NCBI GenBank assembly: GCA_002683315.1
Contig: NYTD01000068.1
Location: forward strand, 1 to 40,850
DNA from: Deltaproteobacteria bacterium
Lineage (GTDB): Bacteria; Myxococcota_A; UBA796
DNA length: 40,850 bases
Direction: 5' to 3'
Shown: piece after piece, positions 14,193-40,850 of the stretch
Position numbering within the stretch: position 1 is the stretch's first letter
Layout of the letters: each line of letters starts with the position of its first letter
Notes under the pieces: generated by a model
Database searches by the model: none
What the model was told of the DNA's origin: nothing
What the model saw: the letters and a program-made list of their open reading frames with translations, nothing else
Position numbers and translations under genes: made by a program

Positions 14193-14678
14193 ATGCGTTG
14201 GTTTCTGGTCGATACAATAGATCAGCTTATTTTGGGTGATTTTGCAGTAGGCACAAAGACCTATGCAGATACAGAACCCTTTTTTCAAGATCACTTTCCA
14301 AATTTTCCAGTGGTTCCCGGTGTTCTTATCATGGAGTCTTTGGCTCAGATATCGGGAAAGCTTATTGGGTATACGGTTCGTACAGATCGTGGAGACTGGC
14401 CTTTTCCCATCCTGAGTATGATGAATCGAGTCAAATTTCGAAAATTCATCCCTCCCAACACCTGCATCACGTTGGAAACAAAGATCAAAGTTCTCAAAGA
14501 TGAAAGCGCGCTTGTTGATGTCCGAGCTAAGGTAGCAGGAAAAGTTCATGCGCAAGCAGAGCAGCTTTTTGTGTTCAATTCGGTGCCATTGGAAGAAGGT
14601 GAGAGTGAAAGATTGGAAGAACTAGAAAGAACCGAACTTCTTCGACTTTGGAAAGATTGTCCGGAGCATCACTCATGA
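14193..14678 (+). CDS. fabZ: FabZ-type 3-hydroxyacyl-ACP dehydratase
   Basis: FFQDHFPNFPVVPGVLIMESLAQ and VKFRKFIPP. GGAG RBS before MRWFLVD (alternative start 14166). Confidence 0.9.
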   Translation: MRWFLVDTIDQLILGDFAVGTKTYADTEPFFQDHFPNFPVVPGVLIMESLAQISGKLIGYTVRTDRGDWPFPILSMMNRVKFRKFIPPNTCITLETKIKVLKDESALVDVRAKVAGKVHAQAEQLFVFNSVPLEEGESERLEELERTELLRLWKDCPEHHS

Positions 14679-16740: not shown

Positions 16741-16760
16741 TTGACGCTATTGGTTGGTGT

Positions 16761-20477: not shown

Positions 20478-20531
20478 TTTTTGATATTGTGTTAAACTCC
20501 AACAACATCAATGATATTGAAGGAGTTTGAT

Positions 20532-20954
20532 ATGACCATTGCACTGGCGACACAAAGTGATGACGTTCAAAAAGATATTTGGGAAAAAGTATCCATAGCA
20601 TTTCAAGAGGCACTTGGACTTGATGAAGACGAAGTAGAGTTTGACATGACGATCATTGAAGATTTGGATGCTGAGTCCCTTGATCTTCTTGATATAACAT
20701 TTCAACTTGAGCGCTCGTTCGATATATCTATACCTCGTGGCGGAATTCAAAAAACAGCACAAGAAGGTGCAGATAATGATGGTTTACAATCGGATGGAAC
20801 CTTGACAGACAACGCCCTGGTTCGTCTTGCCGAAGCGATGCCAGAAATTCCAAAAGAAAAATTTGTACAAGGCTTAAAGCCCAATGATATCCCCAATTTG
20901 TTTGTGGTTGGAACCTTTTATAATCTTGTGGTTCGACTTCTAAACGAAAAATAG
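20532..20954 (+). CDS. Acyl carrier protein with a large C-terminal insertion
   Basis: DLDAESLDLLDITFQLERSFDISIP core with the Ser intact. About 50 extra residues precede LFVVGTFYNLV. AAGGAG RBS before the ATG at 20532. Confidence 0.88.
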   Translation: MTIALATQSDDVQKDIWEKVSIAFQEALGLDEDEVEFDMTIIEDLDAESLDLLDITFQLERSFDISIPRGGIQKTAQEGADNDGLQSDGTLTDNALVRLAEAMPEIPKEKFVQGLKPNDIPNLFVVGTFYNLVVRLLNEK

Positions 20955-21901
20955 TGAAGCGATTCTTATTTTTGGTTCATCCTCTTTCGAACCCACACCG
21001 TACACTTATGTCGCTTCGATGTCGGTTTTGGAAAAGTTTGATTACGGAAACATATACACAAGCAGAGATTGCCACACTATGTCGTTTTCGATGGGAAGAT
21101 ACAATAGAGGGTGTGGTCATGTCGATCCCACTTCTTCCCAATGAGATGATTGAAAACCAAGAGCGCGCTCTTTCTTTATTGCATAGAGCATATCGGATTG
21201 GTCTGGCTAAATACGGGAATATTGATGCCGTGGGGTTGGGATCGTTATGCTCTGTTGTAGCGAGTCGAGGAGTTGAGTTACAAAAGATAATTCCTGTTCC
21301 AGTAACAACGGGTAATGCTGCTACGGCTTGGTGCATGTACGCCCATATACAAAAGAGAAACATATCCGATCCGATCGCTGTATTGGGTTCATTATCTCCT
21401 GTTGGACAGGTGCTTTGTCGTCTATTACATCAAGCGGGATATGAGTTACGTGTCGATAAAAAACGTGCGGCCAAAAAGTATGGTTGGAATCATGGTGAAC
21501 CAGAAGATATTGTACGCGAAGCTTCTTTGGTTATCGGTTGTGGGCCAACTGGACCTGTGTTGGATGGACAAGCATTGCTCCCCAATGCTGAGGTGATTGA
21601 TGTGGCACTTCCTGGAAGTATTCAAGGATTCGTACACAATATGGTCTATCAAGGAGAAGGGATGTCAATGCCTGTCTCATGGAAAAGAGGTTTTTGGGGA
21701 CCCTTGTATCATCTTGTGTCTGGTTATGGGTGGAACACTGTTTTGGCTTGCTTGATTGAGCCCTTGATCGTTGTTTCCTTGGGTCGAAAAGAAGGTTTGG
21801 CATTAGGAAGTAAGATCGATCCGCAGGCCGTTCTTGATTTTGGTGGAGAAGCGAAGCGTCTCGGATTTGAGCCCAAACTTATTGTTCATCGGATGGGATG
21901 A
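20954..21901 (+). CDS. Acyl-ACP reductase-like oxidoreductase (AAR / COG5322 type)
   Basis: N-terminal FLFLVHPL, GLGSLCSVV and VTTGNAATA; Rossmann-like IAVLG; VIDVALP; VLACLIE; C-terminal AKRLGFEP. This matches the motif order of cyanobacterial AAR. Confidence 0.75.
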   Translation: MKRFLFLVHPLSNPHRTLMSLRCRFWKSLITETYTQAEIATLCRFRWEDTIEGVVMSIPLLPNEMIENQERALSLLHRAYRIGLAKYGNIDAVGLGSLCSVVASRGVELQKIIPVPVTTGNAATAWCMYAHIQKRNISDPIAVLGSLSPVGQVLCRLLHQAGYELRVDKKRAAKKYGWNHGEPEDIVREASLVIGCGPTGPVLDGQALLPNAEVIDVALPGSIQGFVHNMVYQGEGMSMPVSWKRGFWGPLYHLVSGYGWNTVLACLIEPLIVVSLGRKEGLALGSKIDPQAVLDFGGEAKRLGFEPKLIVHRMG

Positions 21902-22381
21902 TTACCCAACAAGATAAGTGGCCACACCGCTTGCGATTTGAATATTTTGCTCGTTGTGTAATGCTACGCGAAATACACCTATTTTATTGCCCATTCGTTC
22001 GATTTGTGCACTTGCGGTGAAACATGTTCCTTTTCCCGGGCGAAGAAAGTCGACGTGTAGGTTGACCGTTCCGAGCTTGGAAAATCGTTCGTTGAATTCT
22101 GCAATGGTGCATTCTTGTGTATCGATAAACAAAGAGCGTGCAGCAATAAGGCCACCTACGGTGTCAAGTGCAGAAGAGATCACACCACCATGAAGAATAT
22201 TTTGCATTTGGTTTCCGATAAATTCATCTCTTCTATCAAAAATAAGTTCGGCACGATTGTTTGTTATCTTTCCAATGCGGTAGTGAAAAAGAGTGTTAAA
22301 AGGCAGGACTTCAAGAAATATCTGAGAGATTTTCTCCAATATCTGTGGATTTTTGAGAATTGTTTCGTGTGGTGTGTTCAT
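21902..22381 (-). CDS. PaaI/YigI-family hotdog acyl thioesterase
   Basis: FIGN...ILHGGVISSALDTVGG, LGTVNLHVDFLRPG and IASGVATYLVG. Confidence 0.9.
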   Translation of the reverse strand: MNTPHETILKNPQILEKISQIFLEVLPFNTLFHYRIGKITNNRAELIFDRRDEFIGNQMQNILHGGVISSALDTVGGLIAARSLFIDTQECTIAEFNERFSKLGTVNLHVDFLRPGKGTCFTASAQIERMGNKIGVFRVALHNEQNIQIASGVATYLVG

Positions 22382-26410: not shown

Positions 26411-29400
26411 TTACCCGATTTTACGAAAATGTATACACTCTTTACGTTTGATGTGTGCAAGAGCAAAGCAAAGATGATCTCGATAGGAAAACTTTACTGC
26501 AATTTCAAGATAGCTATATTGTCCAAGATGATTGTATAATGTGACATTTGCCCGAAAAGGGGAGCACATGGTGATTTCAATATCAGTTGTGGCGATGCGA
26601 AGACCAATGCCGAGGAGTTTTGAAACAGCTTCTTTGGCACACCATATGGCTGTAGTCCTATGATGCGTTATCGCTTGTTTTTGTTCATGTAGAGTGAAGC
26701 AGTGTCGAACAAAGCTTATGGGGCGTGGTACAATCTCATCTACATCAAGTCCAATAGGTCCATGGAACGAGAGAGCAGCAAATCCTTTATGATTTGTGTG
26801 TGAAATGCTGATCGCATATTTAGGATGTTTTTCGAGGTATGGTGCACCGAGGGAATTATTAAAAACAGAAGAAGAGGAAAGTCCTTGATTTTGTAAGAGT
26901 TTTGCAACAGCCTTTCTGCCAAGAATTCGATCCTGTCGTCTTTTTTGGGCATGTTGCGTGATTTCAAAAGAACCCAATTCATCAGGAATAGATGCTTCTT
27001 GTGGAACCAATAGGCTTTCAGTCCACCCTTTCTGTGGAATAGGGAGTTTATCTCCATCGGGCAGAGGACCCAAGATAGAAAATTTTAATCCACGTAAACG
27101 AAGAACAACAATATGAGCTGTGTCGATATCGACATGATATCGATCACCCTCTTTATAGACGACAATTTGTAGTGGTTCACCATCTTTTGGTGCTTCAATA
27201 AATTCCAACTCTGCAAATCCAGCGGGTAAACCGACTTGATTACTCTGGCTCATAAGGTGGAGTCCAGCAGCTTGAAAGGCTGCCTCAAGAGCCAAAGGTG
27301 CGGTAGATAAGGGGTTTGGATGGAGCTTGGTGTGATATACTGCTCCTTCACAGCTTAAGAAATCAGTGGACAATTCATAAACCTGATCAAGAACTTGAAA
27401 TGTTGGTCCATGGAAAAATCGCGCGTAGATCTCTTCTTTGGTGAGGATATAATCTGTCCCATATCGTTGTGACAAGTCGCTTGTCTCTGGTTTGGGCATC
27501 AGTTGAACGATCGCCCGAAAGTGCTCTGTTTCCTTGTTTTTTCCATTTGCAAGGATTCGATGACTGTAGAGAGTACAAGAAACCACTCCTTTTCGAACAG
27601 CTTTGGTTCGAACTTCCAAAGAAAGTGTATCAAAGAGTTTTATGGGAGTATCATATTCTACAGAAGATGCACCGCAAAAGCGTGTTCCTGGCCAGATATG
27701 CTTGGCGGCATTTACCATGATTTCAAGACCAATCACACCAGGAAGTACGGGTCGTGTATTGATACAATGATCTTTTAGCCAAGGGGTGTTTTCAAGATTT
27801 AACTCCACAAAACAACGTTGATGATCTCCCCAGAGTTGCACACGATCAATAAACGGCTCGCATGATGGTCGATCAAAATCCCCAAGTTGATCGGTTATGA
27901 TAATCTCATTGCTCCAATTTTCTCGGATGAGGGAGACCATGAGCTCGGCACATGGTTGCGCCTGCAGAAGAAGAATTCCACGCTGTTGCAAAGCAAAGCT
28001 CATTCCTCCCCTTGTAGCCATACCAACTCCATCCCAAGCGCTCCAATCGATATGCAATGCGTTGGGATGTCCAGAGCATAGTCTTGCAAGACCATCATTG
28101 GCTGACGCATAGTCTGCTTGACCGGTATTTCCAAATCGACCCGCAATAGAGCCCATGGATATGAATTTGGTACTTTTGGGAAGAGAATGAAGCAAGTACA
28201 TACCTCCAAGTGCTTTGGGAGTGTATACAGAACGGAACTCTTGGATTGTTTTTTCCGATATGCGTTTGGAGATTTCTATTCCCGCGCCATGAATACAGAT
28301 ATCTATGGTTCCCCACATCTTTGTGATTTTTTGAATTGTTTCAGATACATCACGCTTGTTTCCAACATCTAAAGCGTAAAATACCACATCTGCACCGAGT
28401 TCTTGTATGTCTTCGATTGTTCTTCTGGCCTCTTCGGCACGCATAAATGGAGCCATGTGCTCTCGAATGATTGCGGGCGTAACATGTTCATTTTTTTCTT
28501 TTAGGAGAGTCTTTATGTTCTCCTTCTCTTTGTCAATATCTAATGGAGATTGTGCTGGAGGAGTGCGTGACAACAGTGCAATTCGAACATTTGAGTAGCG
28601 AGCAAAGGCACGGGCTATTTCAGAACACACCCCACGAGTTCCACCAGTAATCACAATTGTTTTGGTCTCTGTAGATTTTTCTGTGGGCAGAGGTGGTATA
28701 GGCTGAAGCTGAATCTCGGTTCGAGAGCGAAGTCCATCACTCCAAAAAACTTCTTGCGTAGGCTCAGATGTTTGGAGCTCCTCTAGTATGTGTTCGCATT
28801 TTTGTTGAATGGTATATTGCGGAGATAGATCAACAACACGAATTTGTGTGTTTTCCCACTCTCGGCTTAGTGTTTTACACAGTCCGGCTCTGGAACCTGA
28901 TTCCAAACGAGTTTGGGGTGCAACGTTATGCGGTGTCGTCCCGATTGAGGTTATACACATCCAAAATTTGGGTTGTATTCCATGCTGCGCTGTTAAGAAT
29001 CCAGCTTCTGGATTGGAGCTAAGATCGATGACTAAATCTGGATTGGATGATTCTATCATGCCGTATGAAGTCAGTGTCTTTGTGAGCATGTCGACAAGCT
29101 GACCGTTACCTATGATGGCAAAGGAGGAGAATTTATTGGAATATCCCTTTTGAATGGGGTGTGGAATTCGCACGACACTATATATTTGTGTTGTTGTTGG
29201 TAGGTCATGCTGTATATAAGATCGGACAGGTTCTTTTGATGCCGATTCTGTAATGAGGTCTTTGGATATCGGCTGTGTAAGTTCTTCTGTGCTGGAAAGA
29301 TGCGAAGATAATGAACGTCTTTTATTTTTTCTGGGAACAAGGAGAGATTCGGTGACGGAAGAGATTGTATCTGTTGATTCTGTTATGACTGAATCAGTGA

Positions 29401-32400
29401 TTTCTAGGTCAAGGTTTTGCAGGGGAATGTCATTTTCTTGTACCACAGAAGAATGATGATCTGGTGTTGTTTGTTGGACTTCAGGCTTTGCTTTTTCCAG
29501 TGATGCAGTATGGGGATTTTCTTCAAACCAAGAACAAAGAGCACGAATGGTTGGAACTTCTGTAAGAACCAAATCGGTCTGTGTTGGAATTTGAAAGATA
29601 TCGCGTAATGTGGAAAAGATTTCCGCTTGTTTTACAGTATCAATTCCTAGGTCTGCCTCTAGTTCATAGTCCAACTCAAGATCTTGTCGATCATATCCAG
29701 TGGTTTGTGCGATACAATCCAAGACTTGATCTTGGATTGATTTTGTAGGAGTCTTCATGGAGATACTGTCTTTTATTTCTACTTGCGGCAAAGAAGAGAT
29801 CTGTGTTTGTTGATTTGGAATCAGTCGTAAAACGTGATCTTGTACTTTAAGAGTTGCGGGGTGATCGTACAGTGAAGAAAACCATTGTTTTTGACGGTCG
29901 GTATCAAAGCATCGATTCGACGGTGCATCTTGCGGAACGATGGTTTTCCATAGTAAGAAAGCAATTTGAGAGCCAAAACCCGCAGCAAGTCGTAGTGCAT
30001 ATGTTCCGGTGAATGTTCCTCCTTTTGAAAGAGAGATGTTTCCAAGTTCAGGATCAACTTCCTTGTAATTGGGGATGGGGGGAACTGTTCGGTGCTCCAA
30101 TGCTTTTACAGCCAAAACATCTTCAATACCTGCTCCCATAGAATGCCCAGTAGCTCCTTTGCTGTTGCAAATAAGGATTTGATCGATGTTTGATCCAAAT
30201 GTTTGTCGCAATCCTTTTATTTCTGCGGAGGCAGATCCTCCTCGTGCTGGAGTATAGGTTTCATGTGAAACGAAGAGCGTCTTTGAAGCAATATCTGAAG
30301 GAGTGGTATTATTTTTTGTACAGGTCTTTTCTACAAATTCCTGTAGTGCGTCTGCAATGTCATCTTCATTTAGGCGCGTACCGTGGAATGCACTATTGGA
30401 AAAGTGTGATCCAAGAAGTTCAGCTATGGGATATTGTCCTCTTTGTTCTACATCGATGCGTCGTTCTAGAACCATTCCAACAGCACCCATACCCAAAATC
30501 ATTCCATTTCTTCGTTTGTCAAACGGAAGGGCTGCTTCTTCTACATCTGATTTGGTTGTCGCTGCACCGACGCTCAAAAATCCTGCACCAATCCACTCAA
30601 ACATTTCTTCATTGGTCACATCATCAGCTGCAATGACAATGACACGTTCAGCTCTTTGGGTTTGGAGCCAATCTTGTGCGATGGCGATGGCTTGGGTTGT
30701 TGAAGCACATGCCGCATTTACGTAGGTGTTGGGACCTTTTGCACCAATATATTGTGCAAATTGTGTATGTCCCATGCTTAATATCTGAAACAAAAACTTG
30801 CGGTTGAATTCTTTTGGTGGCGTTTTGATACTGGCTATGAGGTTGCTATATCCAGGAAAGGCACTGGCAAAAATAATGCCCGTTCCTTTTTGTAGATTTT
30901 GGGGGAGTATCCAACCGTCTTGAATGGACGTCCCTTTTCTATATCGAGGGACGAGTGGTATGCGCGCATCTGTTAATGCTTCTAGTCCCGCAGCAAATGC
31001 TAGCTTTGTAGTGATATCAAATGTTTGAAGAAGTTCTTCTGGGATATCGTAATCACGGAGTGAGAAGTATGATTTTTGTCCAGCCAGTTGGATGACTTTT
31101 TCTGTGTCTGAAACATGTTCAAACCCTCCTTGGCCCGTCTGCGCATTTTTGCTGACGCGAACGATATTTTTGTTTAGGAATCGTTTTTTTGCTTCTTCCG
31201 TAATGGAGGAAATACGATTTTCTCCTCGAAGCAGTGCATCGATATTATCTGTCGAGAAGACAGAAGTTCCACCTGGCAATCCAACGGATGCTCCGGAGCA
31301 AACAACTTGGATCCTCTGTGGAAGTTGAGTGGATTGTGTGATGGGTTGGGGCTGGAGGGGGTTTTTTACGTCCTTTTGTGTGATGGCATGTAATAAGGAT
31401 TCAAATCGTTGATCTAAAATTTGGTTGAGCTCTTGTTTGGTTACACTGTGCTTTTCGATCGGCTTTATGAGTGGATTTTCAGCCAAAGGAGAGTCCTTCT
31501 GTATAAAAGACTTTCCTTTTATGGCACGGAAACCAGCAATACATTGCATGAAGGATCGTTGTTCACCTGTTTTGGGGTGATTCGTATTTAAGATGTAATG
31601 ATGTCGTTTTTTTAGAATGTTGCTGACAAGGCCGGTTAATACACGTTGAGGACCACATTCTACAAATACTCGCGCCCCTGCATCATACATCGTCTCAATT
31701 TGTGTGATCCATTCAACAGGATGTGTGACTTGTGCAGTAAGTGTATCGATGATGGAGTTTGGGTCAGTAGAAAGCCAAGATCCTGTCACGTTGGTTGTCA
31801 TGGGTATTTGAGGGATAGAAATGGTCCGCTTTTCAAGAACTTTACGCAATGGCTCTGTCGCAGGTGCTACGATCTTAGAGTGGAATGCATGACTCACAGG
31901 AAGAACCTTACATCGAAATCCTTTTTCCTTACACATTTTAAGTATAGATTGAACTCCAGCACTTGAACCGGCAATTACTGTTTGGTTGGGACTATTGTTG
32001 TTGGCGGCGATGACATAGTCTTCTGATTTTTCCAGCAGCGGAGTCAAAGCTTCCGCCTGCGCAAAGATTCCAGCCATCATTCCAGGATCATCAAGGTGAA
32101 TATTTGCCATTTCGCGACCACGAACAGTGACAGAGATAAGTGCATCTTCAAAGCTCATCACTCCCGCTGCAACTGCTGCTGCATATTCTCCAAGAGAATG
32201 CCCCGCAACCATATCTGGCTCTATCCCATGTTCTTTGAGCAGGCGAAATAACGCGATATCCATGCACAATGTGGCAGGTTGTGCAATTTTTGTATCCGAG
32301 AGCATGGAAAACTGCTCTTGTGAAGAGAGAGAAGGATCGGAATAGATATAATCAATAAATGGTTTGTCAAGTTGCCCTTCTAGAAAAGTGTTGGCTTGGT

Positions 32401-35020
32401 CAAAAGTCTTTTTGACAATAGGAAATAGGTCACATAGCTCTTTTCCCATGTCCAGATATTGGCTTCCTTGACCGGTAAATAAAAAAGCTACTTTTCCTGC
32501 TGGTTTTCTTCGGTCGATAACATATATGCCTCTTCCTCGAAGCAGTGCAGGATTCTTGTTGGATGTATGTGTTTTTTGTATGCGAACAGATTGCTCTGTA
32601 TATTCAGCAAGATTTTGGGCATATGCGCAGGTAATCCATGTGTCGGATGAAGCCACGCTCCAATCACGAAGATTGATTTTTCGAACAAGATCTGAAAAAG
32701 AAGCGCCTCCCACCGACCAAATATTTGGAAATTTTGATTCTGTAGAAGAAAGTGTCTTGGTGTCATGTTGAGTAGGCGTATTCTCTTTTGGTACAGAGCT
32801 CATACAAAGATGAAAATTGGTTCCTCCAAACCCAAAAGCACTGACTCCAGCTCTTCGTATAGATGAAGACCAATCTTCTGTTTGGGTTTGAATTTTGATA
32901 GGCCCTAATTCGATATCGGTTCTTGGTGTTGTGTAATTGGCTGTTGGAGGGAATTTTTTATGATAGATGGCCAATGCTGTTTTGATGACACTTGCCGCAG
33001 CTGCCGCACTTTTTAGGTGTCCAATATTGGATTTGACCGAACCTACTCGAAGAGGAGTTGTGCGATTCGATGGCTGGATATCTCGAAGAGTTTCCAATTC
33101 TACTTGATCTCCAACGATTGTGCTGGTTCCATGGCATTCTACAAGCTCAATACTTCCAGCTTCAATATTGGAAGCTGCATAGGCTCGCTCCAAGGCATAT
33201 CGTTGTCCAATTGGATTGGGCGCTGTTATTCCTTTTCCTTTTCCATCACTGGAAGCACCCATACCATCGATGACGGCATAGATTTTATCGCCATCACGCT
33301 GAGCATCGCGTAATCTCTTCAAGATGAGAATGCCACAGCCTTCGCCCATCACAAATCCATTGGCCCGCTGATCAAATGGAGAGGAATGGGTCGGAGAGAG
33401 TGCTCCGATTTTACTAAATTTAACATAGGTTGGAATTCCCATGCTATGATCAGATCCACCTGTTACGACCATATCGAATTCTCTGTCTCGTAATCCTTTT
33501 ATTGAGGCTTGAATGGCGGCCATAGATGATGCACATGCTGCATCAAGAGTATAATTTGGACCGTTAAAATTGAACGCGTTGGCTACTCTTCCAGCAATAA
33601 CGTTGGAGAGTTCTCCTGGCATAGAATCTGAATTCAGCTTGGGTAGTGTCTCTTTGATCTGCGTACGAACTCTTGCGATCATTGCATCGCGATCTTGGCT
33701 GGAGAGAGATTGAATGACAGGGTCGCGTAAAAATGCTTGTTCAAACTCAGGAAGTCTCGTTCTCAATGTATAGTCTTGAGAGACCTCTCCTCCCATAGAA
33801 TTGCCCAAGATTACAGCCGTTCGTGAACGGTCAAAATCTCGGTCATGATACCGTGCATCAGCAAGAGCATCTTCTGTACTGGCAAGTGTAAGTTGTTGGA
33901 CGAGATCTACTTGCTGGAGTACGAATGGGGGGATTCGAAACGGTTTTGGGTCGAATGTAAAAGAACGAATGAAGCCACCAACTTTGGAATATGTTTTGTC
34001 TTCTTTTTGAGGGTCTGGATCCCAAAAAAGACTTGAATCCCATCGGTTTGTTGGTACTTCGATAATAGAAGATTTTTGATTGATGATATTGTTCCAGAAA
34101 TCTTGTGGATTATTTGCATCGGGAAAACGACACCCCATACCGATGATCGCGATTGGTTCTTGGTGTGTAGAAGAAGGGGAAGCGGTAGTTGAAATAATCG
34201 CGATTGGTTCTTTTTTAAATTCTGGAGGCTTTGTGATTTTTTTAGGAGAAGGATTCTTTGGCTCTACCAATGTACTTGGATCACCTTTGTAGGCTCTTAG
34301 AAGATGTGCGATGGAAGGATAATGTTTGGCTATATCAGGAGCATGAAGAATGGATGAGCCAAAAGGCGCAGGGCAGGTGGCAGGATCTGATTTTTGAAAC
34401 CATTCTGTACAGGTCTTCCACCAATTTTTTTCGAGAGCGATCGTCTCTATGCCTGCTGAAAGTGCGGGAGCAAAGATAGATACATTTTTGTGTCTTTGGC
34501 AAAGAGAAGGATCTTGTTTTTCTATCAGTTTTTTCCATGCTGTAGGAAGGAGCATTTCGGGCAGAGCCATGAGATATTCATGGAGTATAATCCCTTCGAT
34601 ATTATTGTTCTCTACTTTGTCCATGTCGGTAGGTAGCAATGCACAATCCAACATGATTCTTTGATCAGGTGTCCGTTTGCTCAACCGATCCCATATGTCT
34701 GTGTTACCCGCTTGTCCTCCGACATTTGGACCGCGAAGAATAATTCCGGCAAATCCTTTTGGTGTTTTTTTGTATCGAGAGGTTTCAAGCCATGTGTCGC
34801 GATTTCGAATGGGTAGCTTGTGATTTTCCCCAGCGAGAATTACGGGGCCTTTGCCCGGTACAGCTCTACGTACTCTTGTGCGTACCCAAGCACCAGCTGG
34901 AATGGCGACCCGATCTCCAAGAGATATATCAATAACGGGAATCCCTCCTGCCTTTACAACATTTGAGGCTAGGTTACTACGTGCAGAGGGTAAGAAACAA
35001 AGGATTTGTGGTGTGGACAT
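26411..35020 (-). CDS. Type I PKS/FAS megasynthase: degenerate FMN-barrel(ER-like)-KS-AT-KS-ACP(Thr)-KR-DH-PPTase
   Basis: KS1 DAAC496ASS, ECHGTST, NIGHLK. AT GHS942LG, VSHAFHS. KS2 NAAC1438AST, VSHETYT, TGHSMG. Carrier ADLGIDT1795VKQ. KR ITGGTRG, GQADYASAN. DH LKDHCINTRPVLPG, HGPTFQ. PPTase GAP...ISISHT, IGLDVD, WCAKEA. Confidence 0.92.
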   Translation of the reverse strand: MSTPQILCFLPSARSNLASNVVKAGGIPVIDISLGDRVAIPAGAWVRTRVRRAVPGKGPVILAGENHKLPIRNRDTWLETSRYKKTPKGFAGIILRGPNVGGQAGNTDIWDRLSKRTPDQRIMLDCALLPTDMDKVENNNIEGIILHEYLMALPEMLLPTAWKKLIEKQDPSLCQRHKNVSIFAPALSAGIETIALEKNWWKTCTEWFQKSDPATCPAPFGSSILHAPDIAKHYPSIAHLLRAYKGDPSTLVEPKNPSPKKITKPPEFKKEPIAIISTTASPSSTHQEPIAIIGMGCRFPDANNPQDFWNNIINQKSSIIEVPTNRWDSSLFWDPDPQKEDKTYSKVGGFIRSFTFDPKPFRIPPFVLQQVDLVQQLTLASTEDALADARYHDRDFDRSRTAVILGNSMGGEVSQDYTLRTRLPEFEQAFLRDPVIQSLSSQDRDAMIARVRTQIKETLPKLNSDSMPGELSNVIAGRVANAFNFNGPNYTLDAACASSMAAIQASIKGLRDREFDMVVTGGSDHSMGIPTYVKFSKIGALSPTHSSPFDQRANGFVMGEGCGILILKRLRDAQRDGDKIYAVIDGMGASSDGKGKGITAPNPIGQRYALERAYAASNIEAGSIELVECHGTSTIVGDQVELETLRDIQPSNRTTPLRVGSVKSNIGHLKSAAAAASVIKTALAIYHKKFPPTANYTTPRTDIELGPIKIQTQTEDWSSSIRRAGVSAFGFGGTNFHLCMSSVPKENTPTQHDTKTLSSTESKFPNIWSVGGASFSDLVRKINLRDWSVASSDTWITCAYAQNLAEYTEQSVRIQKTHTSNKNPALLRGRGIYVIDRRKPAGKVAFLFTGQGSQYLDMGKELCDLFPIVKKTFDQANTFLEGQLDKPFIDYIYSDPSLSSQEQFSMLSDTKIAQPATLCMDIALFRLLKEHGIEPDMVAGHSLGEYAAAVAAGVMSFEDALISVTVRGREMANIHLDDPGMMAGIFAQAEALTPLLEKSEDYVIAANNNSPNQTVIAGSSAGVQSILKMCKEKGFRCKVLPVSHAFHSKIVAPATEPLRKVLEKRTISIPQIPMTTNVTGSWLSTDPNSIIDTLTAQVTHPVEWITQIETMYDAGARVFVECGPQRVLTGLVSNILKKRHHYILNTNHPKTGEQRSFMQCIAGFRAIKGKSFIQKDSPLAENPLIKPIEKHSVTKQELNQILDQRFESLLHAITQKDVKNPLQPQPITQSTQLPQRIQVVCSGASVGLPGGTSVFSTDNIDALLRGENRISSITEEAKKRFLNKNIVRVSKNAQTGQGGFEHVSDTEKVIQLAGQKSYFSLRDYDIPEELLQTFDITTKLAFAAGLEALTDARIPLVPRYRKGTSIQDGWILPQNLQKGTGIIFASAFPGYSNLIASIKTPPKEFNRKFLFQILSMGHTQFAQYIGAKGPNTYVNAACASTTQAIAIAQDWLQTQRAERVIVIAADDVTNEEMFEWIGAGFLSVGAATTKSDVEEAALPFDKRRNGMILGMGAVGMVLERRIDVEQRGQYPIAELLGSHFSNSAFHGTRLNEDDIADALQEFVEKTCTKNNTTPSDIASKTLFVSHETYTPARGGSASAEIKGLRQTFGSNIDQILICNSKGATGHSMGAGIEDVLAVKALEHRTVPPIPNYKEVDPELGNISLSKGGTFTGTYALRLAAGFGSQIAFLLWKTIVPQDAPSNRCFDTDRQKQWFSSLYDHPATLKVQDHVLRLIPNQQTQISSLPQVEIKDSISMKTPTKSIQDQVLDCIAQTTGYDRQDLELDYELEADLGIDTVKQAEIFSTLRDIFQIPTQTDLVLTEVPTIRALCSWFEENPHTASLEKAKPEVQQTTPDHHSSVVQENDIPLQNLDLEITDSVITESTDTISSVTESLLVPRKNKRRSLSSHLSSTEELTQPISKDLITESASKEPVRSYIQHDLPTTTQIYSVVRIPHPIQKGYSNKFSSFAIIGNGQLVDMLTKTLTSYGMIESSNPDLVIDLSSNPEAGFLTAQHGIQPKFWMCITSIGTTPHNVAPQTRLESGSRAGLCKTLSREWENTQIRVVDLSPQYTIQQKCEHILEELQTSEPTQEVFWSDGLRSRTEIQLQPIPPLPTEKSTETKTIVITGGTRGVCSEIARAFARYSNVRIALLSRTPPAQSPLDIDKEKENIKTLLKEKNEHVTPAIIREHMAPFMRAEEARRTIEDIQELGADVVFYALDVGNKRDVSETIQKITKMWGTIDICIHGAGIEISKRISEKTIQEFRSVYTPKALGGMYLLHSLPKSTKFISMGSIAGRFGNTGQADYASANDGLARLCSGHPNALHIDWSAWDGVGMATRGGMSFALQQRGILLLQAQPCAELMVSLIRENWSNEIIITDQLGDFDRPSCEPFIDRVQLWGDHQRCFVELNLENTPWLKDHCINTRPVLPGVIGLEIMVNAAKHIWPGTRFCGASSVEYDTPIKLFDTLSLEVRTKAVRKGVVSCTLYSHRILANGKNKETEHFRAIVQLMPKPETSDLSQRYGTDYILTKEEIYARFFHGPTFQVLDQVYELSTDFLSCEGAVYHTKLHPNPLSTAPLALEAAFQAAGLHLMSQSNQVGLPAGFAELEFIEAPKDGEPLQIVVYKEGDRYHVDIDTAHIVVLRLRGLKFSILGPLPDGDKLPIPQKGWTESLLVPQEASIPDELGSFEITQHAQKRRQDRILGRKAVAKLLQNQGLSSSSVFNNSLGAPYLEKHPKYAISISHTNHKGFAALSFHGPIGLDVDEIVPRPISFVRHCFTLHEQKQAITHHRTTAIWCAKEAVSKLLGIGLRIATTDIEITMCSPFRANVTLYNHLGQYSYLEIAVKFSYRDHLCFALAHIKRKECIHFRKIG

Positions 35021-35107
35021 CTCATACCTTTGGTGTGGATGGTTCTGTGCAAATGTGTGCCAAACACTGGATTTTTGAATAGATCAGATCACAGAAGGGA
35101 GATCCAG

Positions 35108-36337
35108 ATGAATTGTGAACATAAGGACAAGCCTCATGTGTATATAAAAGAAAACAAGATTGTCGTTCAAAAGGACGATCAAGTTATTTCTATTAACCTA
35201 TCTGATGCGCAAATGCTTGTTCAAGAAATCATCGAAGCGAACCAAATTTTACATAAGATGGAAGAAAAAAAGAAAAGTCGTATAGAAGAATTTCGTGTAC
35301 GACTAAAAAAATGTTCCTCGGGTATCATAACGTCTGATCGAATGTCACATATTCTCCGATGGAATGACCGATTCTTACACAAGGCTTCGGTCAATATTTT
35401 GGCTTCTTGTTTCTCTCTAGATGATGATGGGTGGGCTGTGGTGATTCCAGAATTGACACGATATGGTCGTGTGGGTTTATTTTTTGCAATATCTACCCAC
35501 GAAGATCAAGATATCGTCTCTGAATTGTGGAATTGGGGAGCTTTTGATGAAATTCTCTGCTCCACATTGTGGGATCTTCCTTCTACGCAGATCCCACAAA
35601 CCTTTCAGACGAGGCTTGTTCCTTTTGTGTCTCAAGAATGCTTTATTCCTGCAGGAGATTTTATGATGGGCTCTGAAGGAATGGAAGCCTTACCTTGCGA
35701 ATATCCAAAGAGAAAGATTACGCAATCGCGTGATATATACATGACACGATTTCCCATGACCCAATTGCAATACTGGTCTTTGACCGATCAAGAGCCATCT
35801 CATTTTCAAGGAGCGTTGAGGCCCGTGGATTCGATCTCTTGGTTGGATGCCGTACAAGCTTGTAATCTTTATTCGTTGGCAATGGGGTACAAGCCAGCAT
35901 ATCGCATAGAAAAAGAAGGAGCTGTTCTTTGGGATCAAAGTGCAAATGGGTATAGGCTTCCTACAGAAGCGGAGTGGGAATCTGCAGCACGTGCGGATCA
36001 AGATTGTTATTTCTCTGGAAGTGATGACCCATGCAAGGTGGCCTGGTTTTCAGATAATGCAACGGAAACAAAGCGTGTAGGAGCTAAAGAACCCAACTCT
36101 GCACACCTGTATGATATGACTGGAAATGTGTGGGAGTGGGTCTTTGATGCATATGATGAAGAAGCATACAGAAAGACTCCTACGATAGATCCGGTTGTAG
36201 AAGAAGGAACATACCGAGTATGTCGTGGTGGAGCATTTACCAGCTCCGCAGAGAGTTCTCGAATCAGTATTCGTGGAGCATATGAACCAGATGAGCGTAA
36301 TTGGGCGGTAGGATTTCGGATGGTTCGTTTTGCCTAA
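35108..36337 (+). CDS. FGE-sulfatase (SUMF1-like) domain protein without the FGE catalytic cysteines
   Basis: IPAGDFMMGS, MTQLQY, RPVDSISWLDA, YRLPTEAEWESAAR, LYDMTGNVWEW, RVCRGG and VGFR. GGGAG RBS before the ATG at 35108. Confidence 0.88.
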   Translation: MNCEHKDKPHVYIKENKIVVQKDDQVISINLSDAQMLVQEIIEANQILHKMEEKKKSRIEEFRVRLKKCSSGIITSDRMSHILRWNDRFLHKASVNILASCFSLDDDGWAVVIPELTRYGRVGLFFAISTHEDQDIVSELWNWGAFDEILCSTLWDLPSTQIPQTFQTRLVPFVSQECFIPAGDFMMGSEGMEALPCEYPKRKITQSRDIYMTRFPMTQLQYWSLTDQEPSHFQGALRPVDSISWLDAVQACNLYSLAMGYKPAYRIEKEGAVLWDQSANGYRLPTEAEWESAARADQDCYFSGSDDPCKVAWFSDNATETKRVGAKEPNSAHLYDMTGNVWEWVFDAYDEEAYRKTPTIDPVVEEGTYRVCRGGAFTSSAESSRISIRGAYEPDERNWAVGFRMVRFA

Positions 36338-36338
36338 T

Positions 36339-37763
36339 TCACCATGGTGAAGGAGTACCTGTAATACCTTTCCGGACTTTTTTTCCTAGTATACGTATAT
36401 CGGGGTGTAGTACTTGATCATCGCTCCAAAATTGCACCTGATCTCTAATTTGAGCATGGATCTTTGCAATGCGAGGCGGAAGAGGAAGATGATCTGTTTG
36501 CATCCGTAGATCCAATGCTTGTGCAGCGAGTAAAAGTTCGATGGCGACAATGTCTGCGAGGCATTCTAGTATTTCTAAGGTATGTCTTGCGGATATGGGA
36601 GCCATGGAAACATGATCTTCATGATGCTGAACGGTTGGAATTGAATCGACACTCGCTGGCATTGTAAGACCTTTGCATTCCGAAGCAAGTGCAGCCGCAG
36701 TGTATTGTGCAAGCATAAATCCAGAATTTAGTCCTGTACCTTGTACCAAAAAACTGGGTAGATCTTTGGATAGTTTTTCATGTGTGAGGCGAAACGTACG
36801 TCGTTCAGAGAGAGTTGCAAGTTGGGTTAGAGCGATCTTAAGATGATCAAGAGCGAGTGCGATTTGTGTACCGTGAAAATGTCCCGCTTCGATCCACTCT
36901 CCATCAATGAGTAAAGGATTATCAGAACAGCCATTGAGTTCTTGTTCCATAATTTTTTTTGTGTGGTTGATGGCGAGTAATGTTGATCCCATGACAGATG
37001 GTCCACATCGTATGGAGAAGGCATCTGGTTTTCGCTGTGGACCGACACGTTCAGAGTCTTGAAGTAAAGCCCGCAGTTGAGCTCCTATTTCTATACACTC
37101 TGGATGTCCTCTTAGGGTTAATGCTTTTTTATGGATGCACTGATTTTGCGCATAAATAGCCTCCATGGTCATTGATGCAGCAATAATGGCGGCGTCTAAA
37201 ACTTTTTGTGCACGCACAACAGCAATCGATCCTAGAGCAGTACTTAGTGATACGCCATTGATAAGAGAAAGACACTCTTTGGCCGTGGGCTCAAGAGGAG
37301 TAAAAGTATCAGGGTGAGCTATATACCCACATACCACTGCTGCAATATGTGCCATGGGAGCCAGATCTCCTGCTGCTCCAACACTACCTTGTGATGGAAC
37401 ATCGGGAATATCATTGTTGTTGATTAATTCCAATATTTTTTGTGCAGCAATCGGCCTAGAACCAGTGAATCCTGAAGCCAAGACGTTGATCCTTGCAGCC
37501 ATTGCGGCTCGAACATACTCTTTGGGCAAGAGTTCACCAACACCTGCACAGTGCCCGAGGATGAATTCCTTTTTTAGGTTTTCACTTTGGGTCTGTTCTT
37601 CTCCAAGTAGCCATGCTCTTTTGCTTTCGAGAATGGTAGACGGAGTGTGTAGCGCATTTTCTTCCATCTTTTGAAGAGAGGATTTTGCGATAGAGCATGG
37701 TTCTCCATGTGCGATGCGATGTAAAATATCACATGTCAGACTGGTTCCATCAATAAGATTCAT
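36339..37763 (-). CDS. Aromatic amino acid ammonia-lyase paralog lacking MIO serine (probable pseudoenzyme)
   Basis: HCAGVG, GSVGAAGDLAP (AAG rather than ASG), LINGV, PDAFSIRC, SDNPL, GLNSGFM and HEDHVSM. The YGVNTGFG loop is absent. Confidence 0.85.
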   Translation of the reverse strand: MNLIDGTSLTCDILHRIAHGEPCSIAKSSLQKMEENALHTPSTILESKRAWLLGEEQTQSENLKKEFILGHCAGVGELLPKEYVRAAMAARINVLASGFTGSRPIAAQKILELINNNDIPDVPSQGSVGAAGDLAPMAHIAAVVCGYIAHPDTFTPLEPTAKECLSLINGVSLSTALGSIAVVRAQKVLDAAIIAASMTMEAIYAQNQCIHKKALTLRGHPECIEIGAQLRALLQDSERVGPQRKPDAFSIRCGPSVMGSTLLAINHTKKIMEQELNGCSDNPLLIDGEWIEAGHFHGTQIALALDHLKIALTQLATLSERRTFRLTHEKLSKDLPSFLVQGTGLNSGFMLAQYTAAALASECKGLTMPASVDSIPTVQHHEDHVSMAPISARHTLEILECLADIVAIELLLAAQALDLRMQTDHLPLPPRIAKIHAQIRDQVQFWSDDQVLHPDIRILGKKVRKGITGTPSPW

Positions 37764-39298
37764 GAAGACTCCTCTGTGGAGATGGCAAAAGCTCCTTTTT
37801 GTACTTGATTGGCAATATGTTCGATTTGATGTGCGATTAAAGTATTGGACGATTGCTCAAACAGGATATCGTGTACCATTTGGTATCCTTTTTTTGTACC
37901 CTTTCCCAGTTTGTGCTTGGGGTTTTTATCGATTCGGTACGATAATGCATGGCCTGCGGTCAATAGCTCGATCGCAATCACACGACGAGCATTGTCAAAC
38001 ACTTTCCGACAACGTCGTGCGGCCACGGTACTCATGGCAATATGATCTTCTTGATCTTCACACGTGGGAATAGAATCTACACTCGCCGGCCAAGCCAGAG
38101 ATTTATTTTCGGAAACCAGTGCAGCGGCTGTGGTTTGTGGAACCATCATTCCCAATGCAGGCTTGTCTTTTCCAACCAAGCCAGGAGGCAGTCTTTGTGA
38201 AAGATTCCCTGTAGTGAGGCGGTATAATCGACGTTCTGATATTGAGGCAAGTTCGCAAATGGCTATTTTTAGACTATCGATAGCCATGCCGATTGGTTCC
38301 CCATGAAACATACCCGCACTAAATGCTTTGTTTTCATCGGGTTCTTCGAGTAAGATCAGTGGATTGTCTGTGGCAGCATTAAGCTCAATCGATATCTGCG
38401 AAGAGACAAAGTCATACATATCTCGTACAGAGCCCAAAACTTGAGGGGTGCATCGTAGACTGTATGCGTCTTGTACTTTTTCAGGGACAGAGTCGATAAG
38501 TGTAGAGCCTTGAATGTGATTGCGAATTTGTCTCGCACATTCTATCGCTCCACGATAGGGTCGAAGCTTATGCACAGAGGCATGAAAGGCACGAGAAACA
38601 CCCAAAAGAGCTTCGATACTCATGGAAGCAGCAAGTTCGGCACTTTTTATAAGAGAACGTACGTCTTCGCACAGTAACGCCGCGAGGGCTGTCGAGAGTT
38701 GAGCTCCATTTGTGATGGCAAGTCCATCTTTTGCTTCAAGTAGAATCGGTTCAAGGCCTATTTTTTTCAGTGCTTCTGGTGCAGAGATCTTTTCTCCATG
38801 TACAATCGCTTCTCCAAGTGGATCTCCGATCAGAACCAATCCAAGATGTGCCAGAGGAGCAAGATCACCAGAAGATCCACAGCTCCCTTGCATGGGGATC
38901 ACTGGAAGAAGATTATGATTGAGAAATGCGATCAGATACTCCACCAATAGAGGTCGACAACCGCTGACTCCTTTTGACAGAGCATTGGCACGTAGTAGCA
39001 TCATTGCACGCGTGACATCTGGTGGAGCAATGGGTCCGACACCAGCCGCATGAGAACGAATAAGATTTCTTGAAAGGAGTGAAGACTGTTCTGGAGGAAT
39101 GCGCAATCGTGCCAACGAACCAAATCCTGTGTTTACCCCATAGATTGCACGATCACCCAAAGAAGCATCACGTACCCACATATAGCTGTTTTGCATATTT
39201 TCACGAGCCTGTGAGCTTAAGGCAACTTCTTTATTTTGTCGTGCAACAGCGACAACATCTTCGATGGTCAATGTGTTGCCGGTTAGGTACAATGGCAT
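37760..39298 (-). CDS. hutH: Histidine ammonia-lyase
   Basis: AIYGVNTGFG, LIRSHAAGVG (SH specificity pair of HAL), GSCGSSGDLAPL, QDAYSLRC, TDNPL and QEDH. Confidence 0.8.
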   Translation of the reverse strand: MPLYLTGNTLTIEDVVAVARQNKEVALSSQARENMQNSYMWVRDASLGDRAIYGVNTGFGSLARLRIPPEQSSLLSRNLIRSHAAGVGPIAPPDVTRAMMLLRANALSKGVSGCRPLLVEYLIAFLNHNLLPVIPMQGSCGSSGDLAPLAHLGLVLIGDPLGEAIVHGEKISAPEALKKIGLEPILLEAKDGLAITNGAQLSTALAALLCEDVRSLIKSAELAASMSIEALLGVSRAFHASVHKLRPYRGAIECARQIRNHIQGSTLIDSVPEKVQDAYSLRCTPQVLGSVRDMYDFVSSQISIELNAATDNPLILLEEPDENKAFSAGMFHGEPIGMAIDSLKIAICELASISERRLYRLTTGNLSQRLPPGLVGKDKPALGMMVPQTTAAALVSENKSLAWPASVDSIPTCEDQEDHIAMSTVAARRCRKVFDNARRVIAIELLTAGHALSYRIDKNPKHKLGKGTKKGYQMVHDILFEQSSNTLIAHQIEHIANQVQKGAFAISTEESS

Positions 39299-39380
39299 AT
39301 GTGGTTCCTCTAGAGGAAATTATCATACAACTTGTCTCTTTTCAAGGCATCTCTTTTATGTATCTTTGGGTTCTCTGATC

Positions 39381-40850
39381 ATGATTCTTCCATTCGTCTT
39401 TTATTCTTGTACACCCGATCTCCCGGAAAAATATACCAAAGAAGAGGTTGTATCAACGAAAATAAATATTTTGCTCGTTACCATTGATACGCTTCGTGCT
39501 GATCGTGTCGGTGCGTATGGGGATACAAAAGCACAAACAAAAACAATTGATCTGCTTGCGCAAAAAGGAGTTTTATTTCGAGAAGCACATAGTCTATCTC
39601 CACTCACTCTCCCATCCCATTCTTCTATTTTAACAGGATTATACCCTAAAGAACATGGAGTACGTGATAATGCTGGTTTTGTTCTTCCCAATAAGATCCA
39701 CACAATCGCAGAAGCATTGAAAACAGGTGGATATGAGACATCAGCGTTCGTTTCAGCTTTTGTATTGGAACATTCTTGGGGATTGTCACAAGGATTCGAT
39801 CGATACCATGATCCATTTCATCCAAAAGATCTCTCTAAAGTTTCAGCACTTGGAGAAGCTCAGATTCCTTCATCAGATACCATCAATGCAGCACAAGCGT
39901 GGTGGAAAAAAACAAAAGGTCCCAAATTCTCATGGGTTCATTTGTACGATCCACATACGCCTTGGGAGACCAAAACGGGAGATCCATATCGAGGAGATAT
40001 TGCACAAGCAGATCAGAATCTTGCACGGTTGATCGCGCAAACAGATTCTTCCGATTTGATCATCATTACCTCTGATCATGGAGAAAGTTTATGGGAGCAC
40101 GGTGAGCGAGAGCACGGAGTTCTTCTTCATAGATCAGTGACACGAGTCCCTTTGATTATTCGTCCTCCGGGGACAATAAACGGGGTTACAGAACCACCTC
40201 CAAGAAATTCTATTTTGGAGGTCCAACGACCAGAAGGGGTTGATCCTCGTTTGATTCTAGAACCTGTCAAAGATGCTCCAAAAGCTGGTTATGTTGTGGA
40301 TGATGTGGTTCGTCTTATCGATATCGCACCGACAATAGCAGACTATGCGGATGTACCCTTTTCTGCTTCTGGATTATCGTTACGTCCTTTTATAGAAGGT
40401 AAGTCACAGCCTTCTCGTATCGCGTATGCCGAGACTCTATTTCCCTACTACCATTTGGGTTGGTCATTTATGACAATGGTGCAAAATGCTCAAAGGCGTG
40501 TTGAAAAAGGTATTGATACTCGAGCAATGCTATGGAAAAGTGCACAAAAAACATTACCGACATCTGTGTTACTTAATGAGATGGACATGAGGTTCGGTTC
40601 CGATATACCTATACCAGGGGCTGTAACAAGTGCTCAGCAAGAAGCGTTACAAACGTTGGGGTATATGTCAGGAACGGAGACGATTAAGCAGGACATGGAT
40701 CCTCGTGACCACATTCATGTCTTATCCGATCTTTTCCAAGCTCAAGAACTTCCTCACGAACAGGCTATTCCTGCTCTAATTGACTTGATAAACAAGTATC
40801 CCAACATGATTCATGCATACACAGCTTTGACATTACATTATGTACAAGCA
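39381..40850 (+). CDS. Partial (3'-truncated) sulfatase-like hydrolase of the alkaline phosphatase superfamily, putative lipoprotein
   Basis: Read directly from the DNA because it is absent from the ORF track (no stop in window). MILPFVFYSC, ILLVTIDTLRADRVGAYG, PLTLPSHSSILTGLYP, WVHLYDPH, TSDHGE, RVPLII, DIAPTI and LQTLGY. Confidence 0.88.
   Translation, partial: MILPFVFYSCTPDLPEKYTKEEVVSTKINILLVTIDTLRADRVGAYGDTKAQTKTIDLLAQKGVLFREAHSLSPLTLPSHSSILTGLYPKEHGVRDNAGFVLPNKIHTIAEALKTGGYETSAFVSAFVLEHSWGLSQGFDRYHDPFHPKDLSKVSALGEAQIPSSDTINAAQAWWKKTKGPKFSWVHLYDPHTPWETKTGDPYRGDIAQADQNLARLIAQTDSSDLIIITSDHGESLWEHGEREHGVLLHRSVTRVPLIIRPPGTINGVTEPPPRNSILEVQRPEGVDPRLILEPVKDAPKAGYVVDDVVRLIDIAPTIADYADVPFSASGLSLRPFIEGKSQPSRIAYAETLFPYYHLGWSFMTMVQNAQRRVEKGIDTRAMLWKSAQKTLPTSVLLNEMDMRFGSDIPIPGAVTSAQQEALQTLGYMSGTETIKQDMDPRDHIHVLSDLFQAQELPHEQAIPALIDLINKYPNMIHAYTALTLHYVQA

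Follow-up and report, generated by a model that had tools for sequence, protein, structure and literature searches.

The window considered here is the whole stretch of 40,850 nucleotides formed by positions 1 to 40,850 (forward strand) of contig NYTD01000068.1, from the Deltaproteobacteria bacterium assembly GCA_002683315.1. On its minus strand it encodes two adjacent paralogs of the histidine ammonia-lyase (HAL) family: HAL-A (37760..39298, 512 aa), which the listing of open reading frames (ORFs) and profile matches indicate to be a complete histidine ammonia-lyase-type protein, and, downstream of it, HAL-B (36339..37763, 474 aa), a catalytically stripped paralog. The central result, which is new here, is the reciprocal decay of these two HAL paralogs. 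The two proteins are conserved side by side in uncultured marine bacteria of Myxococcota type. The decay of each protein where the other is intact suggests, as far as their sequences can tell, a two-protein form of what is otherwise known as a one-protein tetrameric enzyme. The anatomy of the two genes, their conservation, the selection acting on them, their coupling, their co-occurrence and their reciprocal decay are direct observations. As an explanation for these we incline, a little beyond even balance, toward a heterotetramer in which HAL-B would be a non-catalytic subunit that completes the active sites of HAL-A.

Architecture and conserved residues of HAL-A and HAL-B

Searches with the PF00221 profile (gathering cut-off 27.3) recovered both proteins, HAL-A with 569.5 bits over profile positions 1-464 and HAL-B with 404.1 bits over positions 60-465 only. 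The first 59 positions are unmatched in HAL-B, and hence so is the N-terminal lid region of the profile. The two proteins are 38% identical across 374 residues in a pairwise alignment. HAL-A further scored 566.4 bits against the NCBIfam model PRK09367 (cut-off 524) and, as a borderline pass, 540.0 against the TIGR01225 hutH equivalog (cut-off 539.15); HAL-B, with 399.3, falls under the latter cut-off and is not a HutH by this equivalog.

HAL-A retains the equivalents of Tyr53, His83, Asn195, Gln277, Tyr280, Arg283, Phe329 and Glu414. Its Tyr-lid motif YGVNTGFG (39119..39142), bearing the equivalent of the catalytic Tyr53, and a Ser-Ser-Gly triad (38867..38875) at the position that forms the methylidene-imidazolone (MIO) prosthetic group are accompanied by QDAYSLRC, ALGMM and EDHIAM motifs. 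It thus displays both the X-Ser-Gly triad and the combination of Tyr53 lid and Tyr280 that are expected of HutH. Serine is an accepted first residue of the MIO triad, and SSG is a listed variant (PMC9002059, partial text). The lid positions Y53, G54, N56, T57, G58 and G60 are invariant among 25 sequences of the A family, and SSG with the full catalytic set is present in all 40 assessable partner A genes. Judged by profile cut-off and residues, HAL-A is a member of the HutH family.

The picture presented by HAL-B is quite different. In alignment it has a 12-residue gap exactly at the Tyr-lid loop (around HAL-B residues 52-55; 37599..37610), the MIO triad is replaced by Ala-Ala-Gly (residues 130-132; 37368..37376), and the counterpart of QDAYSLRC reads PDAFSIRC (37005..37028), with Gln277 changed to Pro, Tyr280 to Phe and Arg283 retained. 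In the alignment to Pseudomonas putida HAL it has lost Tyr53, Ser143, Gln277 and Tyr280 and has kept His83, Asn195, Arg283, Phe329 and Glu414, the last within HHEDHVSM (36603..36626). HAL-B therefore has neither the X-Ser-Gly triad nor the lid and Tyr280 of HutH. Both paralogs possess the His83 and Glu414 equivalents that mark a HAL-type rather than a phenylalanine or tyrosine ammonia-lyase (PAL/TAL)-type pocket, two residues with roles in imidazole binding (bioRxiv 10.1101/2025.08.13.670108, partial text).

These features bear out the initial annotation, which had been made from the sequence alone. It had pointed to an ATGA overlap at 37760-37763, to Ala-Ala-Gly at 37376-37368, to the missing YGVNTGFG lid and to PDAFSIRC standing for QDAYSLRC. 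It had also pointed to an intact 474-aa frame with GLNSGFM and EDHVSM facing ALGMM and EDHIAM in HAL-A. All of these are in place in the ORF coordinates, the sequences and the alignments.

The predicted monomers of both proteins are confident HAL folds; their lid and pocket loops have low values in the predicted local distance difference test (pLDDT) and are uninformative on assembly. The model of HAL-B (pLDDT 87.3, predicted template-modeling score 0.90) has a TM score of 0.87 to the HAL structure 7TQR, and the closest solved structure to HAL-B is 1GKJ, the entry for the Y280F mutant of P. putida HAL. Since HAL-B lacks the triad Ser, Tyr53 and Tyr280 and lies below the equivalog cut-off, it is, on these sequence features, a HAL-fold pseudoenzyme and not a HAL. 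The automatic annotation names both genes 'histidine ammonia-lyase', though one of them cannot be a lyase.

The initial annotation had also offered HAL-B as an MIO-independent lyase. In this role it might act, in the manner of ergothionase, on hercynine, ergothioneine or a similar derivative of histidine that offers a good leaving group. The absence of the MIO Ser together with the retention of imidazole- and carboxylate-binding residues would be in keeping with such an activity, and working relatives that lack the MIO are at hand in ergothionase (6S7J) and the hercynine trimethylammonia-lyase Swoo_3913 (bioRxiv 10.1101/2025.08.13.670108, partial text). Furthermore, the gene next to HAL-B encodes an FGE-sulfatase domain, a kind of domain found in EgtB and OvoA. 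However, the MIO-less lyases, as described in that partial text, retain the catalytic Tyr as acceptor of the beta-proton, while HAL-B has lost the whole Tyr loop and its family has Phe for Tyr280 throughout. HAL-B is also far nearer to HAL (252 bits) than to ergothionase 6S7J (96 bits), and the neighboring FGE domain is far under the EgtB cut-off (56.7 bits against 360) and is kept only in the loci L117 and L118. These observations disfavor the proposal, and we regard it as quite improbable.

Reciprocal decay of the two paralogs

A column-by-column comparison was made of 60 A, 74 B and 58 canonical HAL sequences. Among 169 columns conserved in canonical HALs (counted on a smaller sequence set), 43 persist in A but not in B, and 27 persist in B but not in A. 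The lid, Ser143, Tyr280 and Gln277 are among the columns that B has lost. Those lost by A concentrate in a loop with the canonical HAL sequence F..G.NSGFML, 7 of the 27 falling in one 14-residue stretch. In HAL-A the degenerate and variable counterpart of this pocket loop is formed by residues 373-386 (38141..38182). The canonical form, PSFLV..GTGLNSGFMLAQY, occupies residues 336-354 of HAL-B (36702..36758) and is invariant across the B family.

Over the B family at large the NSGFM loop has Met in 74 of 74 sequences, Gly in 74 of 74 and Phe in 72 of 74. The corresponding region of the A family is variable and not merely different, its column entropies ranging from 1.1 to 2.7 bits, with Met in 41 of 60 sequences. 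The suggestion that the loop of HAL-B is more canonical than that of HAL-A, made earlier from the single pair, thus extends to the two families, one with an invariant and the other with a relaxed loop. This lends indirect support to the first of the three readings in the initial annotation, a heterotetramer whose subunits share out the parts of the active site. The conserved loop Met, a further hallmark of HutH, is accordingly a property of B and not of the A family, although HAL-A of the window itself keeps the Met (ALGMM). This Met was found in 58 of 58 canonical HALs of the first set and in 90 of 91 of an independent set, in which the loop Gly was likewise present in 90 of 91. It is described as Met380, conserved in all bacterial HALs (PMC11432326, partial text), and the homologous segment of PAL carries Ile460 of the substrate pocket (PMC9226071, partial text).

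The same elements emerge when every 10-column window is scanned without preselecting a motif. The loop ranks first for variability of A over canonical HALs (+0.70 bit per column) and over B (+1.02), and the lid segment ranks first for variability of B over canonical HALs (+1.18). The second-ranked window of A is a helix, in which the canonical signature Q.LDLR is kept in B (Gln in 74 of 74) and lost in A. The first canonical set had been retrieved by peptide patterns lying inside the tested loop, which renders this comparison circular. It was repeated with 91 independent canonical representatives obtained by profile search. With these the loop still ranks first for A and is the sole window in which A exceeds the canonical HALs, the excess being small (+0.14 bit per column) because this set is much more diverse; the lid again ranks first for B (+0.62).

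Recurrence of the pair and of the stop/start overlap

The state of HAL-B recurs throughout its family. Of the 120 best homologues that B has in the database, which are 53-100% identical to it, 118 have AAG and none has the lid motif, and Phe stands at the Tyr280 position in all 102 of them that were matched by motif. Among 27 diverse B sequences 118 columns are invariant, including A130, A131 and G132, F249 and R252, and H380, H381, E382, D383, H384, S386 and M387. B also has AAG in 42 of 42 loci. This recurrence of AAG and lid loss indicates that neither is due to chance or to a sequencing slip.

The distribution of the pair was surveyed in the genomes of 40 relatives, in a species-representative collection and in metagenome loci. 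Since these sets overlap and the organisms are kin, their counts are not independent events and describe a single conserved lineage trait. A B-type gene is present in 32 of the 40 relatives (in three of them partial) and absent from 8. In 29 of the 32 an SSG-type A gene lies directly upstream on the same strand, which answers the earlier call for a search for conserved tandem pairs. In two others A is on another contig, and in one (G031) masked bases blur the arrangement. B genes make up the 22 best loci of the species-representative collection. All 22 come from metagenome-assembled genomes of uncultured organisms labeled Myxococcota, Deltaproteobacteria or similar, and 21 have A followed by B. 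The upstream DNA suffices for scoring in 54 of 71 metagenome loci, and these show A and B in that order on one strand in 51 cases, a divergent A in two and no A in one (L148). The pair is conserved over an order-level group, with the B gene spanning seven family-level groups. Of the top 150 places in a library clustered at 50% identity, only about a dozen go to the B family, which marks it as small and lineage-restricted.

Conversely, none of the 40 relatives has an A-type gene without B. The relatives devoid of B carry ACG- or ASG-type HAL homologues and never the A type. In one of them (G024) an ordinary ASG HAL adjoins urocanase. Those of family f3 that are without the pair (L188, L189, L191 and L194, from G017, G023, G029 and G039) encode an Ala-Cys-Gly HAL-family protein about 37% identical to A. 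In a motif search the Glu414-type motif was found in none of these four proteins, and the lid motif was unmatched in two. The ACG triad is also seen in 3 of 58 canonical loci.

The two genes of the window share the minus-strand tetranucleotide ATGA (37760..37763), in which TGA is the stop codon of HAL-A and ATG the start codon of HAL-B. A Shine-Dalgarno-like GAGGAG (37769..37774) lies within the 3' end of HAL-A, 5 nt before this ATG. Among 67 distinct A/B junctions 62 overlap, 52 of them by 4 nt (NTGA), six by 8 nt, one by 7 and three by 1; a genuine spacer, 75 nt long, occurs at a single junction. A purine-rich 4-mer is present 5-18 nt before the B start in 59 of the 67 junctions, this being a raw count in which many of the genomes are GC-rich.

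These data also bear on the alternative that A is a self-sufficient homotetrameric HAL and B a separate oligomer. Merely co-expressed with A, such an oligomer would have histidine, urocanate or a related imidazole as its ligand, and might function, for instance, in sensing, buffering or regulation. Consistent with this, A has all the named catalytic residues and passes the hutH cut-off. The His83, Asn195, Arg283, Phe329 and Glu414 equivalents of B are invariant columns, G027 and G032 have B unlinked from A, and no A accompanies B in L056 or L148. Nevertheless, such a division of labor leaves unexplained why A should have relaxed the NSGFM loop and the Q.LDLR helix, both of which are kept in canonical HALs and in B. 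It also leaves unexplained why the genes should overlap in nearly all junctions, and why A should never be found without B in the 40 relatives. We consider it rather unlikely, while still to be taken seriously; the reading of B as a regulatory pseudoenzyme, which the initial annotation had also offered, is compatible with the data.

Selection and origin

Estimates of the ratio of non-synonymous to synonymous substitution rates (dN/dS) were made for both genes. For B the comparison of the window with L117 gave 0.041-0.051 (dS 1.3-1.6), and that of L118 with L119 gave 0.074-0.078 (dS 0.10-0.11). In ten pairs with at least 90% amino acid identity B had ratios of 0.034-0.126, and A had ratios of 0.024-0.079. 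Most of the pairs compared are saturated, with dS undefined or above 2. The 106 B pairs that were usable span 0.034 to 0.497, always below 0.5, with a median of 0.278 (the median for A being 0.228 over 55 pairs). In GC-rich genomes the NG86 method gave dS of 0.6-0.9 at only 67-75% amino acid identity and so inflated omega to 0.2-0.5. Because dS is under-estimated in this manner, the estimate of selection rests on the ten pairs with at least 90% amino acid identity. By these B is under purifying selection nearly as strong as that on A.

This leaves virtually no room for B as a decaying duplicate, that is, a functionless pseudogene in the making. The loss of four catalytic features might by itself have spoken for such a fate. 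It is refuted by an intact ORF in every locus, by the 118 invariant columns, by the dN/dS of 0.03-0.13 in close pairs and by the spread over seven family-level groups. The initial annotation had held that its case would fall if the AAG copy were unique to this genome and evolving neutrally; the 118 AAG homologues and the low ratios reject both.

In a tree that also includes 58 canonical HALs, each of the two families forms one clade (support 100), and A and B are jointly set off across one branch (93). The stem of B is long, at 0.98 substitutions per site against 0.35 for A, and the crown depths are similar, at 0.71 and 0.61. For a tree that is unrooted, with a canonical set that is a biased sample, these lengths fit a single duplication followed by a burst of change in B and then by stasis.

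A proposed mechanism

HAL is described as a homotetramer with four active sites, each formed by three monomers (PMC11432326, partial text), and in a homology model of PAL residue 150 of chain A, close to the MIO, has residue 420 of chain C as its neighbor (PMC3903478, partial text). The physical association of HAL-A and HAL-B, their stoichiometry and the subunit that lines each pocket are what we infer from this template, as is the physiological role considered below. In the general picture of the family, one chain supplies the MIO, Tyr53, His83 and Asn195 to a given site, a second supplies Gln277, Tyr280 and Arg283, and a third the Met of the NSGFM loop and Glu414.

On this plan HAL-A and HAL-B would be two subunits of one histidine ammonia-lyase. 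Translational coupling would supply them in equal amounts, and the conserved stop/start overlap fits such an equimolar synthesis. They might then assemble as an A2B2-type complex laid out like the HAL homotetramer. HAL-A would bring the chemistry, namely the MIO made from Ser-Ser-Gly, the base of the Tyr53 lid and the Gln277/Tyr280/Arg283 set. HAL-B, with no chemistry of its own, would contribute the pocket elements that a neighboring subunit provides, namely the NSGFM loop with its Met, the Glu414 motif and the Q.LDLR helix. Within A2B2 the A chains would exchange first- and second-chain elements and the B chains donate the third-chain elements, giving two live sites. Turnover would occur solely at these A-centered sites, as the B-centered pockets would have neither electrophile nor base. 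If the above list of chains is right, the third-chain loop of A would face only a dead pocket, and relaxed constraint would be expected there. The B-centered pockets would still hold the His83, Asn195, Arg283 and Phe329 equivalents, and might be either idle or ligand-binding in a regulatory capacity.

Several observations weigh against this heterotetramer, in addition to the circularity of the first canonical set, the smallness of the A-loop excess in the independent set and the non-independence of the counts. A has each catalytic residue that the literature names and scores above the hutH cut-off, and so may work alone. G027 and G032, which belong to one genus, have the two genes on different contigs (L195-L198), with an SSG-type A and an AAG-type B both retained. 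In L168 and L172 A is divergent from B, which there stays about 150-185 nt upstream of a synthase gene considered below. No A was seen within 5.4-6 kb upstream of B in L056 and L148. The B genes in such orphan contexts (L056, L148 and L030) have no recurrent partner nearby; their surroundings encode Band_7 proteins, ion channels, a kinase and an RNase J-type protein. No A-B fusion was found among eight proteins longer than 830 aa that match B, which is weak evidence; these are HALs fused to urocanase, amidohydrolase or other domains. The list of chains is itself general knowledge of the family, not confirmed in the papers cited here. Finally, the Glu414 motif of the A family (TCEDQEDHVAM) is invariant and not relaxed, which would not be predicted if the elements that A donates to its neighbor were idle.

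The last observation is better accommodated if the B-centered pockets still function, and they are probably not mere voids. With His83, Asn195, Arg283 and Phe329 conserved in B and Glu414 in A, a natural guess from these residues is that the pockets bind a ligand and possibly have a regulatory role. A bolder version of the heterotetramer would have an obligate two-gene MIO enzyme, fixed by complementary losses after one duplication as a wild-type form of the intragenic complementation seen in mutant lyases. Neither copy could then build a fully canonical site without the other. Its B-centered pockets, with every ligand-binding residue retained and all catalytic ones gone, would act as allosteric sensors of histidine or urocanate that gate the two live sites. 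This version we advance tentatively and would not expect to hold in every part.

Probable role in histidine catabolism

In genomic context the pair is most simply this lineage's HutH, probably serving histidine catabolism, and its product urocanate would most likely enter ordinary histidine degradation. Urocanase is encoded in 38 of the 41 genomes of the group, including all 15 of the same family, and never adjoins the pair. In four of four loci examined it lies among unrelated genes with no hutH neighbor. The genome of the window has hutI (348.8 against a cut-off of 298.15); urocanase and formiminotransferase-cyclodeaminase (FTCD) were not found in this genome, which is 59% complete. A HAL-like fragment beyond A and B occurs in only two pair-bearing genomes (G010 and G014). 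The simplest reading of the pair as the HutH of the lineage is favored by the lack of a hutH neighbor at the four urocanase loci examined, by the rarity of a third HAL-like fragment and by the ordinary ASG HALs or ACG-type homologues of the relatives without B.

In one genus of the same family a gene with all three FTCD domains is convergent to the pair (L023:5329-7095; G005:C17). FTCD acts in the last step of the eukaryote-type degradation of histidine.

Neighboring genes and the PfaA-like synthase

The largest gene in the vicinity encodes a PfaA-like synthase of 2,869 aa (26411-35020, minus strand) with the architecture KS-AT-second KS-like-ACP-KR-DH-C-terminal PPTase. Its N-terminal domain of 285 aa has no match in Pfam or NCBIfam. 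Language-model features place this domain weakly (0.84-0.89) toward barrels of the nitronate-monooxygenase/enoyl-reductase type, and it heads large open frames in 30 of the 41 genomes of the group.

The association of this synthase with the pair raises the possibility that the latter serves it, either through a building block, urocanate or a related acid, or through B as an adaptor. In 8 of 12 species-representative loci with at least 6 kb of downstream sequence, B is followed on its own strand by a synthase homologue, and the gap between B and the synthase is 144-185 nt in L047, L142, L149, L162, L168 and L172. In the 40 relatives B and the N-terminal domain of the synthase are both present in 28, B only in 4, the domain only in 1 and neither in 7, with 12 of the 28 having them on the same contig. 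B also remains with the synthase in L168 and L172, where A is divergent. Against this, the AT domain is of the malonyl type, and the synthase has no adenylation, CoA-ligase or other starter-loading domain. In the window a gene on the opposite strand intervenes between B and the synthase, and on several long contigs (G005, G026 and G035) the pair and the synthase are unlinked. The co-occurrence is further confounded by kinship, since family f3 lacks both, and urocanase and hutI point to catabolism rather than to synthase supply. We view a service to the synthase as improbable.

The intervening gene (35105-36337, plus strand) encodes a protein of 410 aa, in which an FGE-sulfatase domain (124.6 bits) at the C terminus is preceded by 170 unassigned N-terminal residues. 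The gene is convergent with HAL-B, the two stop codons being one base apart, and it diverges from the synthase. Only the closest relatives retain it, with 82% identity in L117 and 53% in L118. An EgtB-like role for it was considered and rejected on the score and the narrow retention given above.

On the other side of the pair, a sulfatase-family gene (39264-40850, plus strand) is divergent from HAL-A, and such a neighbor recurs in L023, L037, L048, L119 and L124 (44-67% identity). As listed, its ORF overlaps the start of HAL-A by 35 nt, and a later start is likely.

Farther away, at 14648-21901 (plus strand), two gene pairs, each comprising a KS and a short KS-like protein resembling a chain-length factor, stand on either side of a gene for a Ser/Thr protein kinase of 645 aa. 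Next come genes for an ACP-like protein and for a protein of 315 aa that has no family, and a 4HBT thioesterase is encoded on the opposite strand (21902-22381). Two products have a eukaryotic flavor: thrombospondin type 3 repeats encoded at 1-1182 (plus strand) and a weak match, of 24.2 bits (cut-off 26.6), to the Yippee/Mis18-like zinc-binding domain at 11319-11855 (minus strand).

Comparison with known systems

HutH of P. putida (PDB 1B8F, 1GKM and 1GKJ) shares its fold and family with both A and B, and A has its full catalytic set and HAL-type substrate residues. Its tetramer with shared active sites (PMC11432326, partial text) is the template for the proposed assembly of A and B, which are known here from their genes. 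The differences are that HutH is a homotetramer of one gene product, whereas here a stripped paralog is co-encoded and co-conserved; that the triad is ASG in HutH and SSG in A; and that the canonical NSGFM loop is lost in A and kept in B. Ergothionase from Treponema denticola and Swoo_3913, as far as described in the partial text cited for them above, belong to the same superfamily and, like B, have no functional X-Ser-Gly and have kept imidazole- and carboxylate-binding residues. Unlike B, they are active and retain the catalytic Tyr, while B has lost the Tyr loop and Tyr280, is nearer to HAL and travels with an MIO-competent partner.

In the literature searched, which left most subscription journals outside, no pseudoenzyme, heterotetramer, paralog or Ala-Ala-Gly form of bacterial HAL was found, nor any heteromer of an enzyme with its dead paralog among MIO enzymes. 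The characterized MIO enzymes in that literature (HAL, PAL, TAL and the aminomutases) are homotetramers or facultative mixes of active isoforms. The heterotetramers of tobacco PAL, reportedly described by Reichert, He and Dixon in 2009, are said to combine different gene products in one tetramer. The plant PAL isoforms are nonetheless all catalytically complete, are active as homotetramers and mix facultatively, whereas in the present pair HAL-B is dead and the two proteins have complementary losses.

Parallels also exist in unrelated families. In the heteromers formed by the trypanosomatid AdoMetDC with its 'prozyme', and by HisZ with HisG, a dead paralog completes or regulates its active partner. 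In argininosuccinate lyase, active sites built from three subunits permit differently damaged chains to complement each other intragenically. If the proposed assembly of HAL-A and HAL-B is correct, no earlier MIO enzyme in the literature searched would be an obligate hetero-oligomer of this kind, in which one paralog is catalytic and the other is not. It would then also be a natural example of how multi-subunit active sites allow duplication to be followed by reciprocal degeneration.

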